From the NCBI GenBank assembly GCA_965197475.1, contig CBDANF010000003.1:2784001-2848000 (forward strand): a stretch of DNA of 64,000 bases, given 5' to 3'. A program made the position numbers and the translations under genes. This DNA comes from Candidatus Poribacteria bacterium. GTDB taxonomy: Bacteria; Poribacteria; WGA-4E; WGA-3G. The first letter of the stretch is position 1. Each line of letters starts with the position of its first letter. Positions 2,012-46,336 of the stretch are shown here, piece after piece. The notes under the pieces were generated by a model. The model made no database searches. It was given only the letters and a program-made list of their open reading frames with translations, and was not told the DNA's origin.

Positions 2012-2422
2012 CTAAGAATAAACCGTCGCTGTTAGGTTTCGTCTACCACCCCGATTACGGAATTCACACAGATAGATTCCCTGCCATACACCTAAATTCA
2101 GGTGATGGTCGGTAATCGGGATGGATACGGCAAAACCAACAAGCGACGCTTTGATATGTGCTGGCATATCGTCATCGCCTTCTATTGTGTGTTTATAGAA
2201 AGGTTCACGCTCCTTAACGAGACGATCGAAACTATTGGCAAAATCTTCACGCACCGTCGGATCTGCATTTTCATTGATGGTTAACCCCGCTGATGTGTGC
2301 TTAATAAAAAGGTGAAGGATACCTACTCTCGGCAATTCTCCAAGCGATGCCATAATTTCATCTGTGATAAGATGAAAACCGCGCGGATATTCAGGTAAGG
2401 TAATTTCAATTTGATGAATCAT
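2012..2422 (-). CDS. yjbQ: YjbQ/UPF0047 secondary thiamine-phosphate synthase family
   Basis: HTSAGLTINENADP, DMPAHIKASL, LGVWQGIYLCEFR motifs. Confidence 0.92.
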   Translation of the reverse strand: MIHQIEITLPEYPRGFHLITDEIMASLGELPRVGILHLFIKHTSAGLTINENADPTVREDFANSFDRLVKEREPFYKHTIEGDDDMPAHIKASLVGFAVSIPITDHHLNLGVWQGIYLCEFRNRGGRRNLTATVYS

Positions 2423-2609
2423 TTTGTGTGTTGCCTTTGGTCGGTAGAAGCGATTTTGATTAGCACTCCTGCCGTTTGTAAAGTTTCTTGCTATGATACC
2501 ACAATTCCCTGATATTTCACAGGGCCATTTAGTTTCGCAATAAGTAGTTTTGGACTTGCAACAAACATGTAAAAATCGCTACAAACACAGATGTAGACTA
2601 CATTTCCAC

Positions 2610-2638
2610 TTGTTTTAATTGTGCAACTATGATACAAT
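2610..2638 (+). promoter_or_regulatory. Putative sigma70 promoter for the transposase
   Basis: TTGTTT-N17-TACAAT inside the left end. Confidence 0.5.
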
Positions 2639-2641
2639 ATA

Positions 2642-2752
2642 GATAAGAAAGTAGGGGGTTGGTAGCCCCCTAAATGAACACAAAAAGCGAGTTGCTTTTT
2701 GACGGTTCTAATCTTATCTGGTATTATATCAGAAATCCGTCAGAAAAAGCAA
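2642..2752 (-). ncRNA. Putative antisense RNA unit (RNA-OUT-like) over the transposase leader
   Basis: Minus-strand TTGCTT(2752-2747)-N18-TATAAT(2728-2723), then hairpin TAGGGGGCTACCAACCCCCTA plus a U-rich tract ending near 2642. Confidence 0.45.
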
Positions 2753-2774
2753 CTCCTATTTCAAGGAGTATCTG

Positions 2775-3659
2775 ATGGATTTATTGAAGGTAATGGAGCG
2801 TTTTCCTGACCAAGAAGCATGTATTGAGCATTTGGAATATATTCGGTGGCGTGGTGAACCAAGATGTCCGCATTGTGATAGTCTAAACGTTGCGGAACGG
2901 ACAGAGACGGAATTGGGACGCATCGGACGCTGGCAATGCCATGATTGCACTGCTACTTTCAAGGTGACGTGTGGCACGGTGTTTCACGGGACAAAGATAG
3001 CACTTCAGAAGTGGTTTTTGGCGATCTCGTTGATTGTGAATGCGAAGAAGTCGTTATCCAGTTACCAGTTGAGTCGTGATTTAGACTTGAATCAGAAAAC
3101 TGCATGGTTTATAATGACTCGTATCCGTGCTGAAATGGCAAAGAAAGGTAGCAACGTGCTATTACAAGGCATCATAGAGGCTGATGAAACTTACATCGGG
3201 GGTAAACCTCGCAAGCCGAACAAGAAAGCAGATGCGGAGCCTGCCAAGCGTGGTCGTGGCACTGATAAAGACGCAATCATCGGGGCTGTCCAACGCGGTG
3301 GGAAAGTTGTAGCACAACTTGCAAGGGATTTGACAGGACGGACTATTTTAGACTTTATCCGAAGAGCCGTGAAAGTTCAGGATTCGGAGTTGATGACCGA
3401 TGAATATAATGCTTATCTCGCACTCGGTAGAGATATGAAGCATCATATCATCAATCATCAAGAGCAATTTGTTGACGGTGATGTCCACACAAACACGATT
3501 GAGGGGTTTTGGTCGCTTCTCAAACGCGCTTGGTATGGTTCACATCACCACTATTGGACTGAATATACGCCCCTGTATGTCGCAGAGGCGTGCTACAAGT
3601 ATAACTATAGGAGCATTGACAGCATCTTTGATAAGTTTGTTAATGAGAGTATGAGATGA
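2775..3659 (+). CDS. IS1595-family (ISXO2-like) DDE transposase
   Basis: CPHC...CHDC zinc ribbon, HTH, EADETYIGG, TDEY, HTNTIEGFWSLLKR. Confidence 0.96.
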   Translation: MDLLKVMERFPDQEACIEHLEYIRWRGEPRCPHCDSLNVAERTETELGRIGRWQCHDCTATFKVTCGTVFHGTKIALQKWFLAISLIVNAKKSLSSYQLSRDLDLNQKTAWFIMTRIRAEMAKKGSNVLLQGIIEADETYIGGKPRKPNKKADAEPAKRGRGTDKDAIIGAVQRGGKVVAQLARDLTGRTILDFIRRAVKVQDSELMTDEYNAYLALGRDMKHHIINHQEQFVDGDVHTNTIEGFWSLLKRAWYGSHHHYWTEYTPLYVAEACYKYNYRSIDSIFDKFVNESMR

Positions 3660-3665
3660 GTGAAA

Positions 3666-4001
3666 CTAAAGGTACCCAGGGCGTTTCTTTGCATGATCCG
3701 CGGGTTCAGGCGGTGCTTGCAGCACAGATGGCGGAAGCTCGAATGTCTTTTGATCCGAATTCAAAGCTTCGAGAATATTTTGGAACAATGTATAGCAATC
3801 TGACTCGGATTGGAAGATGCCCAAATTGTAGAGAAAAGTTGATTGGTTCGATCCATGAGCGTCTACATGTTTCAACAGAGTCAGATTGAACAAGTTTGAT
3901 TCGTTGTTCTTGATGATCACAATTTCATCATAAATATTAAGATTTACGGCTAATGGACAAAATCCAGTGATTTGTTCAGGTTTTGGAAATATGATTAACA
4001 T
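3666..4001 (-). CDS. Conserved IS passenger protein (111 aa), homolog of 32725-32997
   Basis: RBS AAAGGA before ATG 4001; shares ALxxxxxTFELP and terminal YL with the copy 2 ORF. Confidence 0.7.
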   Translation of the reverse strand: MLIIFPKPEQITGFCPLAVNLNIYDEIVIIKNNESNLFNLTLLKHVDAHGSNQSTFLYNLGIFQSESDCYTLFQNILEALNSDQKTFELPPSVLQAPPEPADHAKKRPGYL

Positions 4002-4049
4002 GATAGTTCCTTTGTGAGTTAGAGGGGACAGGGGCACCTCGTTGTTGGG

Positions 4050-4286
4050 TTAGTCTGTTTTCTTTCGGTTTACATACCGTTTGATACACCAAGCGGTGAA
4101 TCTTGCCGACAGAAAAATAATAGGTATGCCGACAATTTGGGCTACCAATGCTACTAATGCGTATTCTCGAGCACCGAGAACAGTGACTATAGATCCAATG
4201 ATAGCGAAAAACAAAAGCCAGTTTTTCAACGTGTATTTTTGCTTATAGTAAGCAAATACAAGAAGTGGCCACACTAAAAGTACCAT
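4050..4286 (-). CDS. Small membrane protein, variable IS cargo
   Basis: 78 aa with three hydrophobic segments; RBS AAGGGA. Confidence 0.6.
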   Translation of the reverse strand: MVLLVWPLLVFAYYKQKYTLKNWLLFFAIIGSIVTVLGAREYALVALVAQIVGIPIIFLSARFTAWCIKRYVNRKKTD

Positions 4287-4346
4287 GATATTCCCTTATG
4301 GTAAGGGTTGTACGTGTTTTGTTTATAGGATCACGTTGTTTAACCT

Positions 4347-4425
4347 TAACGTTGTTCCCGATCTCATTCGGTTTGGTAGGGACTGCCTCAAGCGAGACAG
4401 ATGAGATTCCCTACCAACAACGTTA
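4347..4425 (-). ncRNA. Structured RNA (three-way junction with bulge-loop kissing), copy 1
   Basis: P1 TAACGTTGTT/AACAACGTTA; P2 GGTAGGGA/TCCCTACC; bulge ATCTCAT; P3 CTGTCTC/GAGGCAG; P4 CCG/CGG with loop AATGAGAT; covaries with copy 2. Confidence 0.75.
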
Positions 4426-4429
4426 GGAT

Positions 4430-4459
4430 AGTATAACATGTGGGAGAAAAGAGAGTCAA
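4430..4459 (-). promoter_or_regulatory. Inward-facing sigma70 promoter in the IS right end
   Basis: TTGACT-N18-TATACT with extended -10 TG; conserved in copy 2. Confidence 0.75.
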
Positions 4460-4505
4460 GTGAAAAATTCAATGGCTTGTTGCAAGTCCAAAACTACTTA
4501 TTGCG

Positions 4506-5114
4506 TTAAAATTTATCAAGAGTTATGCTGTTCAACAGACTGATCTGTTTGCAGAACAAGTGGTTACAGATACATCAGATACTGAAGATACAGTAGTAAT
4601 ATCATTTGGTGAACAACTTGCCAGGAAACGGGACGATGTTGAAATGACCCAAGAGGATTTGGCAGCAAAAGTTGGTTATACTCGTGGGCACATTGCCCTT
4701 ATTGAACAGAACAGAGGAACACCTGGAAAGAGTCTACACAGAAAATTAGTTGAACTATTCGGTGAATTCTCAGAACCAGCCACTGAAACAAGAACTACCA
4801 ATATTTTAGCAGTTGAAATGGAGGATGGGAGTTGGATTTCAGAGAATACAGGGATAGAAACTTTCATTGAGGTCATTAAGCAAATAGACATCGAAAAGGT
4901 AAAAGAACTCAATAAATACGAAGCAAAGATACCTTTGGTAGCGGATAATGAGGATCCTAATAAGGCACAAAGAACAGTCGAAACAGATACAGGGACGATA
5001 TATTACATATTTTCGGGTCTTGCTATTACAAGAATGAAAAGAATTTTGGATGACATCGCTGATCGTCTTAATCTTGATATGAAAGTCTTTATTAACCAAG
5101 TCAAAAAAAGATAG
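4506..5114 (+). pseudogene. XRE-type HTH protein, probably 5'-truncated by the IS
   Basis: MTQEDLAAKVGYTRGHIALIEQN is an HTH_3 pattern; the frame is open from the IS end at 4506 (LKFIKSYAVQQ...) into ORF 4560. Confidence 0.6.
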
Positions 5115-22161: not shown

Positions 22162-22274
22162 CAGGACTTACGCATTCCCCCTTGATAAGGGGGTTAAATA
22201 GGCAGAATTTGGTGCTTTTAACCCCCTAAATCCCCCTTATCAGTGGGACTTTTAAACACATTGCGTCCGTCCTG
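22162..22274. repeat. MITE family B (113 bp) with 5-bp TSD
   Basis: TIR CAGGACTTACGCA / TGCGTCCGTCCTG; TSD TTAAG; related copy at 46224-46336. Confidence 0.85.
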
Positions 22275-31830: not shown

Positions 31831-31902
31831 CGCAATGAGTAGTTTTGGACTTGAGAAAAATTTTAAAAAATCGCTATAAAGCCTTGTGTCCACTGGGTTT
31901 AT

Positions 31903-32715
31903 CGGTGGCGAGGTAAACCTGTGTGTCCGCATTGTGAAAGCGATCATATAGGAGAACGGACAGAAACAGAAATCGGTCGTATCGGTCGTTGGAACTGCCA
32001 CGAGTGCCAAGTGAGTTTCAAGGTGACGTGCAGGTCGGTGTTTCACGGGACAAAGATAGCGTTACAGAAGTGGTTTTTGGCTATTTCGTTGATAACGAAT
32101 GCGAAGAAAAGTTTGTCAAGTCATCAACTTGCGCGCGATTTAGACTTGAATCAAAAGACAGCATGGTATATCATGACTCGTATCCGTGCTGAAATGGCAA
32201 AGAAAGGTAACGTGCTACTACAAGGCATCATAGAGGCAGATGAAACTTACATCGGGGGTAAACCTCGTAAGCCTAATAAGAAGGAAGACCACGTGCCTGC
32301 CAAGCGTGGACGTGGAACAGAGAAAGACGCTATTATCGGGGCAGTACAGCGGGGCGGGAAAGTTGTAGCACAACTCGCTAAAGATTTGACAGGACGGACT
32401 ATTTTAGACTTTATCCGAAGAGTCGTCAAAGTTGAGGATTCGGAGTTGATGACCGATGAGTATAAGGCGTATCTCGCTATCGGCAAGGAGATGAAACACC
32501 ATATCATAGATCATCAAACGCAATTTGTTGAGGGTGATGTCCACACAAACACAATTGAGGGGTTTTGGAGTCTACTCAAACGAGCTTGGTATGGAAGTCA
32601 TCACCACTACTGGACTAAATATACGCCCCTGTATGTAGCAGAGGCGTGCTATAAATACAACTATAGGAGCATTGACAGTATCTTTGATAAGTTTGTTAAT
32701 GAAAGTATGCGGTGA
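31903..32715 (+). pseudogene. IS1595 transposase lacking about 23 N-terminal codons and its leader
   Basis: Highly similar to 2775-3659 from RWRG.P.CPHC onward; about 235 bp missing relative to copy 1. Confidence 0.85.
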
Positions 32716-32724
32716 TGGACACAA

Positions 32725-32997
32725 CTAAAGGTATGCCTTATCAATCTTGTTCTTTTTGTCATCAGGATTTGAGGGAAAATGCTGTGGAAGTTCAAAAGTT
32801 GGCTTTCCATCTTTCAGAGCATCGATCATGTCAAGAGCAAATTCCAACCTCTCATTGTCCGTGTCAAAAGGTTTCTGAATCACTACGCGAAAATTTGTAT
32901 CAAGTTTTACAAGGGCGAGTTCTACAAAACTCTCTGTATGTAAGGCTAAAAGTGAAAAATCAACAGGATCGGAAGGCGGCTTGAATATTACCCACAT
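32725..32997 (-). CDS. Conserved IS passenger protein (90 aa)
   Basis: RBS AAAGGAG; ALKDGKPTFELP...YL homologous to 3666-4001. Confidence 0.7.
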   Translation of the reverse strand: MWVIFKPPSDPVDFSLLALHTESFVELALVKLDTNFRVVIQKPFDTDNERLEFALDMIDALKDGKPTFELPQHFPSNPDDKKNKIDKAYL

Positions 32998-33053
32998 GGG
33001 TTTAGTCTCCTTTGGGGTTAGAGGGGACAGAGTCCCCTCGTTGGTTGGAATTG

Positions 33054-33443
33054 CTAATACCCGTATGGAGAATCAGCAGCTGAAATTAAAATTATCCAAA
33101 GTCCCACCATAGTGCCAGTTCCAATAACACATCCTATTGTAGCATGTGTTATTTGGTCGTTTTTCACAAGTTTTTGATAAATGCTTGTGTAATAAGCAAC
33201 ATATTCTGGTGATTTTCCAAGCAATTTTTCTGGTAGTACCGTTGGTGTGACAACATACGCAATTAACATACCGGTAACACCAAGTAGACAACCAACAGTT
33301 CCCCATATTTGAGTGTTTGCAAGTGTTGCATCACGTCGTGCATCAAATATTGCTTGCGCAGCATCACTTGTTTGTTGTGCAAGTGTGAGATATGGCGTAG
33401 TGAATAACATCACAACCATTATAAACGACAAAGTTTTCATCAA
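33054..33443 (-). CDS. Secreted/membrane IS cargo protein
   Basis: Signal peptide (..TLAQQ) and two TM segments; RBS AAAGGA. Confidence 0.75.
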   Translation of the reverse strand: MMKTLSFIMVVMLFTTPYLTLAQQTSDAAQAIFDARRDATLANTQIWGTVGCLLGVTGMLIAYVVTPTVLPEKLLGKSPEYVAYYTSIYQKLVKNDQITHATIGCVIGTGTMVGLWIILISAADSPYGY

Positions 33444-33510
33444 TGTTCCTTTTGTGAGGTAAAATGTGTATGTAGGGGATCAAAAGACCCCCTACATGTT
33501 TGCAAGCGGA

Positions 33511-33642
33511 TTATTTACACCGCTTGTGAGGTTTGACAGTTTCTTTCACCGTTGTGGCGGGACGGCGTTTGTCCGTGCCTTTGGGAAGGAACCGTCCGTC
33601 TTTGGCATCGCGTACACGCGTGCCAGTGGCTTTTTTAGCCAT
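33511..33642 (-). CDS. 43-aa basic peptide, IS cargo
   Basis: RBS GAGGT; MAKKATGTRVRDAKDGRFLPKGTDKRRPATTVKETVK. Confidence 0.65.
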   Translation of the reverse strand: MAKKATGTRVRDAKDGRFLPKGTDKRRPATTVKETVKPHKRCK

Positions 33643-33749
33643 AGTATACCTCACTTTGCTTGAGATAAATTGGTGCATAGCGTATTTCCAGTGCGTTATG
33701 CACTGTTCAAGCATATAAAATTGATACGTTAAACGGGTATCGTTCGTAG

Positions 33750-33827
33750 GTTCGTTTACACCTTTCTATGGGTGAGGGCAGGACACAACACAAGGAGTGT
33801 TGCGATAGAAATCCTGCCCAACGAACT
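33750..33827 (-). ncRNA. Structured RNA (three-way junction with bulge-loop kissing), copy 2
   Basis: P1 GTTCGTT/AACGAAC; P2 GGGCAGGA/TCCTGCCC; bulge TTTCTAT; P3 CGCAACAC/GTGTTGTG; P4 CACC/GGTG with loop CATAGAAA. Confidence 0.75.
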
Positions 33828-33834
33828 TGAGAAT

Positions 33835-33864
33835 AGTATAACATGGAAAGAATTTGAGTGTCAA
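33835..33864 (-). promoter_or_regulatory. Inward-facing sigma70 promoter in the IS right end
   Basis: TTGACA-N18-TATACT with extended -10 TG. Confidence 0.8.
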
Positions 33865-33910
33865 GTGAAAAATTTGAGAAAAAATTTCAAGTCCAAAACT
33901 ACTCATTGCG

Positions 33911-34353
33911 AAAAGAAATGTCATACAGTGAAAAATAATTTGATTATCAATGAGACCTGCAAAGTTGTCCTATTGACACCCTCTTTTGAAGGAAGACACC
34001 ATGACAAACACATAGCCGATATGGTGGGCTATTGTGTGCCACAGGGTAGCACATTGTCCCAAGATACCGGTTTTCAGGGTTTCGTTCTCCCGGATATAAA
34101 CATCATTCAACCGAAGAAAAAACCGAGAGGTAGAGAACGGACGAATGAAGAAAAAGAAAACAATAGAAAGATAGCGTCTATACGCATACGCGTTGAACAT
34201 GCGATTAGTGGTGTCAAAAGATGCCGCATTGTCAAAGATAAACTCAGGAATTGGAAGAAAGGGTTTTGTGATTTAGTTATGGAAACCTGTTGTGGTTTAC
34301 ACAATTTTCGCCTAAACTTCAGACCCTGGCGTTATGAAACTCCTTCTATTTAA
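33911..34353 (+). pseudogene. IS5-family (DDE_Tnp_4) transposase, C-terminal remnant
   Basis: KKCHTVKN, GRHHDK, QDTGFQG, PKKKPRG, RIRVEHAISGVKR; begins at the IS1595 right TIR. Confidence 0.88.
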
Positions 34354-46223: not shown

Positions 46224-46336
46224 CAGGACTTACGCATTTCCTCTTAAAGTCCCCCTGATAAGGGGGTTAAAATACCAAAATTCTGCTTATTTAACCCCCC
46301 TAACCCCCCTTATCAAGGGGGAATGCGTAAGTCCTG
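46224..46336. repeat. MITE family B (113 bp) with 5-bp TSD
   Basis: Perfect TIR CAGGACTTACGCA / TGCGTAAGTCCTG; TSD TTAAT. Confidence 0.88.

Follow-up and report, generated by a model that had tools for sequence, protein, structure and literature searches.

It is customary to regard insertion sequences as bare transposase genes, and the way in which they become gene carriers is poorly documented outside the elements bearing antibiotic resistance. In this regard, Siguier, Gagnevin and Chandler reportedly defined in 2009 the passenger-carrying insertion sequences (tIS) of the IS1595 family, for which 8-bp target-site duplications are typical according to the ISfinder descriptions. A different route is that of ISEcp1, of the IS1380 family, which mobilises adjacent DNA through an alternative distal right end and supplies it with a promoter. 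In integrons, each cassette ends in an attC site, an imperfect palindrome of about 60-140 bp, and the cis-regulatory leaders with H-type pseudoknots, which are riboswitch-like, constitute a general class. As stated in two articles (PMC7986276, PMC12888890), tIS are an accepted category that was first set out for the IS1595 family. Two elements of this type, copy 1 (positions 2536-4505) and copy 2 (31831-33910), were found in a stretch of 64,000 nucleotides from a Candidatus Poribacteria bacterium (assembly GCA_965197475.1, contig CBDANF010000003.1), which is called hereafter the window. Both had been interpreted from their letters alone as transposons with a fixed chassis and a swappable gene slot behind a dedicated promoter, in other words as an integron-like capture platform (the original prediction).

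The reading favoured here, with a probability of roughly 0.6, is that of a Poribacteria tIS lineage of the IS1595 family whose passenger operon has been reshuffled by ordinary recombination at short conserved junctions. The mobile unit comprises repeat, transposase gene, passenger operon and repeat, and moves as a whole generating 8-bp target duplications. The operon converges on the transposase gene, and its transcription would start at a sigma-70-type promoter located immediately inside the right repeat. It carries, in this order, a pseudoknotted leader of ~95 nt, genes for small proteins of basic or membrane type, a G/C hairpin followed by a ribosome-binding site, and a gene called here ORF-X (open reading frame X). 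Its separable parts are the right end with promoter and leader (in two classes), the basic-peptide gene, the membrane-protein gene, the hairpin with its Shine-Dalgarno (SD) sequence, and ORF-X. These have been re-assorted among co-resident subfamilies, presumably by recombination, homologous or illegitimate, at short junctions that are conserved; in at least one lineage, the tail that follows the transposase gene would have been gained via a second, outer right repeat. The elements show each feature of IS1595 elements and tIS that was tested, namely a zinc-ribbon DDE transposase, inverted repeats, 8-bp duplications and extra genes copied together with the element, and they differ from described tIS in a tail with a conserved architecture, whose parts have been re-assorted between subfamilies. 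Searches of the literature on IS1595 passengers or tIS and on Poribacteria insertion sequences, outside which supplementary files remained, returned no description of these elements. Compared with the literature found (Siguier 2009 and ISfinder being outside the comparison), the tail architecture, the combinatorial re-assortment, the leader RNA and the ORF-X family are new.

Anatomy and mobility of the elements

Perfect inverted repeats bound copy 1, a complete element of the IS1595 family with 1970 bp (Table 1), and the 28-nt repeat pattern has two exact matches (2537-2564 and 4477-4504), with 0 expected by chance. Its transposase matches the Pfam families DDE_Tnp_IS1595 (PF12762, 1.6e-36) and Zn_ribbon_IS1595 (PF12760, 1.4e-09) as well as NCBIfam NF033547 (188 bits, cutoff 75), and 6 nt separate the end of ORF-X from the transposase stop codon. 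The order of parts in copy 2 matches that of copy 1, and the minus-strand arrangement described in the original prediction (promoter-like site, structured RNA, variable gene or genes, spacer, small ORF) was confirmed in both, including the conservation of the spacer, which is 77% identical between the two copies over 61-66 nt. The inward-facing promoter-like site of copy 1 ties for the top score among the four sites of its region, and this position is kept in other subfamilies. With regard to the cargo, copy 1 indeed encodes one membrane-type peptide of 78 amino acids (aa), hydrophobic over residues 19-65 and with a shorter N-terminal stretch, for which hydropathy predicts two to three membrane segments instead of three, and copy 2 carries, as announced, a 43-aa basic peptide together with a 129-aa protein with three hydrophobic stretches. 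The transposases, described as near-identical, are more distant than that (87% protein identity over residues 24-294, 83% in DNA), and belong to two subfamilies with their own fixed cargo.

Table 1. Features of the two elements, in window coordinates.
Feature	Position	Strand	Evidence or remark
Left terminal inverted repeat, copy 1	2536-2564	+	perfect 28-29 bp pairing with 4477-4505
Promoter-like site 5' of transposase gene, copy 1	2699-2727	+	TTGACG-17-TATTAT with TG, 10/12; consensus match only
IS1595-family DDE transposase, 294 aa, copy 1	2775-3659	+	Pfam PF12762, PF12760; NCBIfam NF033547
ORF-X, 111 aa, copy 1	3666-4001	-	acidic, without hydrophobic stretch; converges on transposase gene
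Spacer, 48 nt, copy 1	4002-4049	-	cargo stop codon, G/C hairpin (4022-4040), SD, ORF-X start
Cargo, 78-aa basic membrane peptide (predicted), copy 1	4050-4286	-	ORF, hydropathy, isoelectric point (pI) 10.1
Leader RNA class 1, copy 1	4333-4427	-	covariance model 87.9 bits; minimum free energy (MFE) z = -5.5
Inward-facing promoter-like site of passenger operon, copy 1	4430-4459	-	TTGACT-18-TATACT with TG (extended -10), 10/12
Right terminal inverted repeat, copy 1	4477-4505	-	29 bp by BLAST
Left terminal inverted repeat, copy 2	31831-31855	+	24-25 bp inverted repeat with 33886-33910
Transposase gene, 5'-truncated, copy 2	31903-32715	+	Pfam PF12762; compared with ten other B copies
ORF-X of subfamily B, 90 aa, copy 2	32725-32997	-	fifth strand of relatives missing (compared with L099 homologue)
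Spacer hairpin, perfect 8-bp G/C stem, copy 2	33021-33039	-	alignment; genome position C3:2817021
Cargo, 129-aa protein, copy 2	33054-33443	-	N-terminal hydrophobic segment and two more; ORF, hydropathy
43-aa basic peptide gene, copy 2	33511-33642	-	ORF; 15 Lys + Arg, pI 11.1
Leader RNA class 2, copy 2	33735-33831	-	covariance model R2, 95.1 bits; MFE z = -4.6
Inward-facing promoter-like site, copy 2	33835-33864	-	TTGACA-18-TATACT with TG, 11/12, top site of region
Right terminal inverted repeat, copy 2	33886-33910	-	24-25 bp, BLAST

The host genome (5.7 Mb in three contigs) holds ~40 loci of this transposase lineage, which were sorted into subfamilies A (6 copies of 1970 bp, 100% identical over their full length and including copy 1), B (11 copies of about 2296 bp, 99.6-100% identical and including copy 2), C (4 copies), C' (1 copy), C'' (4 copies with a frameshifted transposase), D (7 copies of 1140 bp, without tail) and E (6 copies with a tail of a different kind), plus one fragment. 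The proposal of a passenger-carrying IS1595 element stands, as the cargo moves with the element: the six A copies, identical with cargo included, occupy different genomic sites, and the B copies are alike over 2296 bp. Cargo is invariant inside each subfamily, as judged from copy by copy comparison in A and B, and therefore the two copies of the window differ as two lineages and not by means of one swapped slot. In 72,556 plasmid records, no transposase exceeds 39% identity to that of these elements. Copy 2 is a defective member of subfamily B, with an internal deletion of 216 bp (junction 31902/31903) by which the transposase promoter and approximately the first 22 codons are gone. It adjoins a fragment of another transposase gene (33911-34353; Pfam DDE_Tnp_4, 1.5e-20), and a 20-nt flank of copy 2 recurs after the B copy at C3:1418190, which indicates that the insertion target was itself a repeated element.

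Regarding target duplications, intact 8-bp copies were found at C3:590643 (A) and C2:1208864 (a B variant), that is, in one A copy out of six and in one out of the nine B-type copies for which the flanking sequence was read. The duplication halves of other copies match halves of sister copies. The copies at C3:2473621 and C3:2586309 show reciprocal halves, are 112 kb apart and lie in inverted orientation, which fits an inversion of 112 kb; this reciprocal pair also accounts for a B copy split by an A insertion. In the case of copy 1, the left half (2528-2535) equals the right half of C3:242781, and the right half (4506-4513) equals the left half of C3:1217830, so that its unlike flanks are explained by a three-way cycle that includes copy 1. 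The split duplications reflect either frequent recombination between copies of the insertion sequence or assembly mis-joins; if the assembly is right, they would show these elements driving large rearrangements of a symbiont chromosome.

Exchange, gain and loss of tail parts

A comparison of the subfamilies of this genome with each other and with 77 loci from other Poribacteria revealed that tail parts have been re-assorted between subfamilies independently of the transposase tree. The clearest case is that of C, C' and C'', with three combinations of parts behind transposase genes 92-96% identical in DNA, which makes the parts exchangeable. C and C' (96%) have in common a 51-bp spacer (92%) and the terminal repeat, and share neither ORF-X, cargo nor leader class. 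C' and C'' (95%) share the spacer and a gene for a DUF805 protein (88%), and differ in leader class and in ORF-X, whose place is taken in C'' by an unrelated helical protein of 83 aa, whereas C and C'' (92%) share the spacer and the right 240 bp including the leader (80%), with different cargo and ORF-X. The unit exchanged within the trio extends from ~13 nt 5' of the cargo start codon through the stop codon. In another genome, the loci L046 and L055 have 94% identical transposase DNA and leaders of class 2 and class 1, respectively, and the basic-peptide gene is found behind class 2 leaders (B, C', L033) as well as behind class 1 leaders (L151, L153, L155). In line with this, leader class changes four times among the 12 tips with a leader (4 class 1, 8 class 2) in a maximum likelihood tree of 31 transposase genes; all four changes are forced by well-supported branches, and the mean for shuffled labels is 3.5. 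Above the subfamily level, then, cargo does not follow the transposase phylogeny, and the junctions are shared. What remains of the swappable slot is an exchange across such shared junctions, which concerns all the tail parts, including ORF-X and leader, and not one slot.

As for the origin of the tails, the loci L078, L080 and L091 keep an inner right repeat directly after the transposase gene, to which ~195 bp have been added that consist of a class 2 leader, a promoter-like site and a second, outer repeat. Such a tail looks like an intermediate with two right ends and would show one route of tail gain. The parallel with ISEcp1 lies in this second right repeat ~195 bp further out, by which the DNA in between joins the unit, and in the position of captured genes downstream of a promoter (putative here) borne by the element. 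It differs, however, in the transposase family and in the promoter, which here is part of the captured DNA and points inward from the outer end; moreover, no remnant of an inner repeat is detectable in A, B or C, where a vestigial copy was sought and local alignments were no better than those of shuffled sequences (p 0.36-1.0), the alignment being significant for L078 only.

Loss of tail parts is apparent as well. In the other Poribacteria genomes, 62 of the 77 loci have a recognisable repeat pair, with tails of <100 bp (8), 100-399 bp (35), 400-799 bp (3) and >=800 bp (16). A majority of copies without cargo, which the original prediction regarded as contrary to itself, thus occurs elsewhere (43 of 62 tails below 400 bp) but not in this genome, where tails reach at least 800 bp in 31 of the 38 repeat-bounded copies. 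Several of the short tails are plainly deletion products: in L049 the start of the basic peptide is fused to the C-terminus of ORF-X, the L046 tail consists of promoter-like site and leader only, and tails of the L051 type retain the last codons of ORF-X. Altogether, bare elements (D), a relative with a second outer end (L078 type), full passenger operons, mosaics and deletion derivatives form a natural series from which the steps between an insertion sequence and a small transposon may be read off.

Some observations weigh against a reshuffling of the operon by ordinary recombination, or against the details given above. The spacer is 85-92% conserved in the A-C and B-C pairs compared with 75-83% for the adjoining transposase DNA, an excess that neutral recombination does not explain and that points to a function or to a preferred crossover site. 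The constancy of cargo within each subfamily implies that exchange is rare relative to transposition. Neither an intermediate nor a donor was found, and cargo paralogues outside the elements are at most 50% identical; a recent capture from the bacterium's own chromosome was considered and rejected, its best paralogues outside the insertion sequences being just 31-40% identical, with no donor found. The swapped flanks could be repeat mis-joins in a metagenome-assembled genome. With respect to expression, the activity of the promoter being putative, most of 2536-4505 is matched with at least 99% identity by contigs that come from four metatranscriptome runs on sponges, all of one study. Some of these contigs extend over the end of the transposase gene, ORF-X, the spacer and a portion of the cargo; there were no contigs on the single-copy flanks (2300-2467 and 4568-4800). 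As these contigs are blind to strand, start and level, may derive from DNA in the library and match an element with six copies, they are taken as a hint only.

A pseudoknotted leader RNA and its contexts

The RNA located between the passenger promoter-like site and the first gene is a well-supported new structured RNA, and it represents the freshest part of this work and its most promising lead. The 22 distinct sequences collected, both here and in other genomes of Poribacteria, fall into two sequence classes with one architecture, which is the sense in which the RNA can be said, as proposed originally, to be shared. An outer stem P0 encloses a stem P1, which in turn encloses a 7-nt strand and a hairpin P2. 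This 7-nt strand, located where P1 and P2 join, forms a pseudoknot (PK) with a complementary strand 3' of P1. For class 1 (11 distinct sequences), P1, PK and P2 are paired in 100% of the cells, with 12 of their 22 pairs changed on both sides, a result that none of 500 column shuffles equalled, and pairing drops to 37-45% in slid registers. Since the class 1 covariance model misses class 2 (L033 only, E 0.11), the classes were analysed separately, and class 2 (10 sequences) yielded 99% of the cells paired and 16 pairs double-changed, again with 0/500 shuffles as good. Nested folding of both window leaders recovers P0, P1 and P2. Moreover, the 3' strand of P0 recurs a few nt downstream in most of the leader sequences, a repetition that would allow an alternative pairing. 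Searches of Rfam 15 (4227 families) gave 0 matches at E<=1 in window positions 2400-4700 and, on seven loci representing all subfamilies, three matches at chance level (E 1.9-4.3). In position, between promoter and first gene, and in the combination of nested helices with a pseudoknot supported by covariation, these RNAs resemble riboswitch-like leaders, from which they differ in being tied to genes of mobile elements and not to a metabolic pathway; furthermore, unpaired positions show no conservation from one class to the other, which speaks against a ligand pocket common to both. In subfamily E and in L062, the right-end promoter-like site is followed by yet another leader-like structure, the third, with a long stem and an internal hairpin; the latter locus also holds a broken metallopeptidase-like gene and an inverted class 1 leader adjoining the transposase gene.

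In this genome, all the leader copies (14/14 of class 1 and 11/11 of class 2) reside inside these insertion sequences or their fragments. Across the Poribacteria phylum, class 1 was found in 83 and class 2 in 44 of the 151 genomes searched, and their contexts were surveyed for the best 30 of ~284 class 1 matches and the best 30 of ~150 class 2 matches. Of those best 30 for class 1, an IS1595 context was recognised in 11, and the 24 downstream proteins scanned included nine TnpB proteins (OrfB_IS605 plus Cas12f1-like TNB) and two GIY-YIG proteins. For class 2, nine of the 27 loci with a central match are in an IS1595 context; behind the leaders of the remainder lie genes of various kinds, among which BLAST identified no TnpB. 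When public metagenome contigs were scanned with a sequence pattern, nine stretches were retrieved, of which six contain a complete class 1 leader (62.9-83.9 bits); one follows an IS1595 repeat, and TnpB-like genes come immediately after at least two. The promoter-leader module is consequently not private to IS1595 elements, as class 1 RNAs also occur in front of TnpB and GIY-YIG genes; the tail does have its own promoter-like site and leader, but these are not dedicated to it as the original prediction proposed. In other genomes and in metagenome contigs, a class 1 leader with a promoter-like site was observed directly 5' of TnpB at L141, L144, L157, L159, L163, L166, L167, L173, L174 and L178, and a class 1 leader upstream of GIY-YIG genes at L168 and L177.

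In the TnpB contexts the start codon (AUG) is placed at the 3' edge of the leader, within the repeated P0 strand, which suggests that the leader gates translation there. A broader proposal, which we regard as possible but doubtful, extends this role to a phylum-wide pool of cassettes made of promoter, pseudoknotted leader and gene, in which the leader would be a translational gate shared by TnpB, GIY-YIG and IS1595 passengers, the IS1595 tails would be carriers without a recombinase, and the G/C hairpin with ORF-X would be a second control specific to the tails. Were this correct, the IS1595 tails would be a transposon-borne functional analogue of the integron that collects, combines and spreads cassettes. 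In any case, the leader links three unrelated kinds of mobile gene and suggests a common control point for the expression of mobile elements in sponge symbionts.

Spacer hairpin, ORF-X and cargo proteins

An alignment of five subfamilies shows the same spacer layout, with the cargo stop codon, a short AAC-rich stretch, a stem of 8 G/C base pairs with a 3-nt loop, an AAC motif, the SD sequence and the ORF-X start. The hairpin occurs at 26 genomic sites, every one of them inside A, B, C, C' or C'' copies, and once per element, without arrays. In other genomes, the stem found 5' of ORF-X homologues has compensatory substitutions and four variants, and that of copy 1 carries two mismatches. Its use as a general end-of-cassette signal was considered and discarded, given that it follows leaders in just 7 of 57 loci, five of which are clearly tails of insertion sequences.

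The gene downstream, which had been expected to be conserved, is not: the ORF-X homologues of A, B, C', C, L033, L099 and an orphan locus are 21-33% identical. They form a new family of small proteins, without known relatives, whose fold is predicted with confidence, the AlphaFold model consisting of five strands and a helix (predicted local distance difference test 87.2, predicted template modelling score 0.75). A profile search in 1.84 billion proteins collected 70 representatives, two of which, long repeat proteins, look spurious. The family is matched in 17 of 176 genomes of the phylum, with 23 matches in this genome, and among 20 loci elsewhere eight have a transposase within 1.5 kb and nine a leader match. 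No PDB entry was found by Foldseek at E<=0.001, and no fold family was assigned from VIA-align (wide), whose best Z of 6.0 is under the noise level of 7-8 stated for that tool; the best ESM Atlas scores, 0.85 for ORF-X and 0.90 for the basic peptide, corresponded to unnamed clusters and gave no lead. The orphan homologue, of 127 aa, lies at C3:2864064-2864450 (L110:3065-3445), ~16 kb past the end of the window, and the 1.5 kb around it lack a transposase, a leader, a hairpin and a repeat core.

The cargo proteins vary in their distribution. The 78-aa peptide is confined to the six A copies and has no paralogue. The 129-aa protein has a 50% identical homologue of 123 aa in the B-like locus L033 of another genome, as well as ~35% identical paralogues on the chromosome of this one. 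The 43-aa basic peptide is also encoded in C', L033, L078, L151, L153 and L155, is 95% identical between B and L033, and has 21 homologous proteins (80-98% identical), all unnamed. Searches of the tail proteins in PADLOC, NCBIfam and Pfam gave no matches except for the DUF805 protein of C', which is a sister element and not a copy in the window (PF05656, 4.8e-22, 79 bits, cutoff 25.7), a TPR match below cutoff in E, and DNA methylases in L067 and L075. In these last two loci, IS1595 relatives from other Poribacteria, a methylase passenger (N6_N4_Mtase, with an HNH domain in L067) replaces the operon of small proteins. In subfamily E (e.g., L027), a 95-aa protein that has a hydrophobic segment at its N-terminus is accompanied by a 134-aa ORF, to which the TPR matches belong. 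In two B copies, the 129-aa cargo gene carries a 166-bp sequence in the place of 42 bp (C2:1208210-1208375, C3:2859697-2859862); the same 166 bp, with 100% identity, are found at three other genomic places and resemble a small non-autonomous repeat.

The pairing of a basic membrane peptide with an acidic, cytoplasmic ORF-X (pI 4.8-5.0) recalls an addiction system, in which a harmful small membrane or basic protein would be neutralised by ORF-X and the element thereby retained. The two genes form an operon, and the hairpin between them could determine the proportion of the two products; the divergence of ORF-X is fast (23-33% identity) next to transposases that are 77-88% identical, and weak fold neighbours include immunity and anti-CRISPR proteins, at Z<=6 and hence within noise. 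We nevertheless consider it unlikely, because C' and C'' share the DUF805 cargo with unrelated proteins downstream, so that there is no cognate pairing, and the ORF-X of B, without a core strand, accompanies an element with 11 copies; moreover, the C'' cargo is frameshifted, tail deletions are common in other genomes, and PADLOC, Pfam and NCBIfam contain no match to a known toxin or antitoxin family.

An improbability of the same order applies to ORF-X as a regulator that would bind the RNA hairpin, or else the leader, and control its own operon or the read-through transcript antisense to the transposase gene. Hairpin and ORF-X do travel together across genomes, and after leaders the hairpin is found only in tails of insertion sequences; the predicted five-stranded sheet with a helix has PUR-alpha, MRP1/2, PC4/Sub1 and RNA-phage coat proteins as weak Foldseek neighbours (E 0.4-2), and the operon converges on the transposase gene, where its transcript could act as antisense. 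On the other hand, every fold match is within noise, the same hairpin precedes the unrelated helical protein of C'', and the two stem mismatches affect A, the most recently active subfamily.

That nothing is modular, the elements being diverged subfamilies whose tails drifted vertically and whose junctions are simply their slowest-evolving bits, is very improbable. The fixed cargo of each subfamily and the homologous cargo of B and L033, the latter in another genome, would be in keeping with such a view, which is contradicted by the C trio, in which transposase genes 92-96% identical accompany non-homologous ORF-X, cargo and leader class. Leader class is, besides, as scattered on the tree as random labels would be, with strong branch support, and L078, whose transposase shares 61-62% identity with that of A, has a class 2 leader matching those of the B, L033 and L046 lineages with 69-81% identity.

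Finally, the integron-like platform of the original prediction, with the hairpin as an attC-like site at which a dedicated enzyme would insert or excise cassettes downstream of a fixed promoter, is extremely improbable: unrelated genes are bounded by short, conserved and structured junctions, the hairpin co-varies and exceeds the adjacent coding DNA in conservation, and one end has a fixed promoter-like site (strong consensus matches in a conserved position, the RNA contigs being unable to show starts), but no tyrosine or serine recombinase, intI-type ones included, is present within the repeats of any subfamily according to ORF lists and Pfam, the transposase being the sole enzyme-sized ORF and the small ORFs lacking recombinase domains; there is no attI and no attC-like site, as the spacer holds a single 19-nt hairpin with its 3-nt loop 10-15 nt before an SD-bearing start codon, as expected of a translation or processing signal; and the parts on both sides of it, promoter and leader themselves included, are exchanged.

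Two further repeat families were noted. The same genome contains a second, distant IS1595-like family, with ~35 further copies and 29% identity to this transposase, and the window itself carries a pair of palindromic G/C-rich repeats of 70 nt (22178-22247 and 46251-46320), which are 76% alike and unrelated to the insertion sequences.

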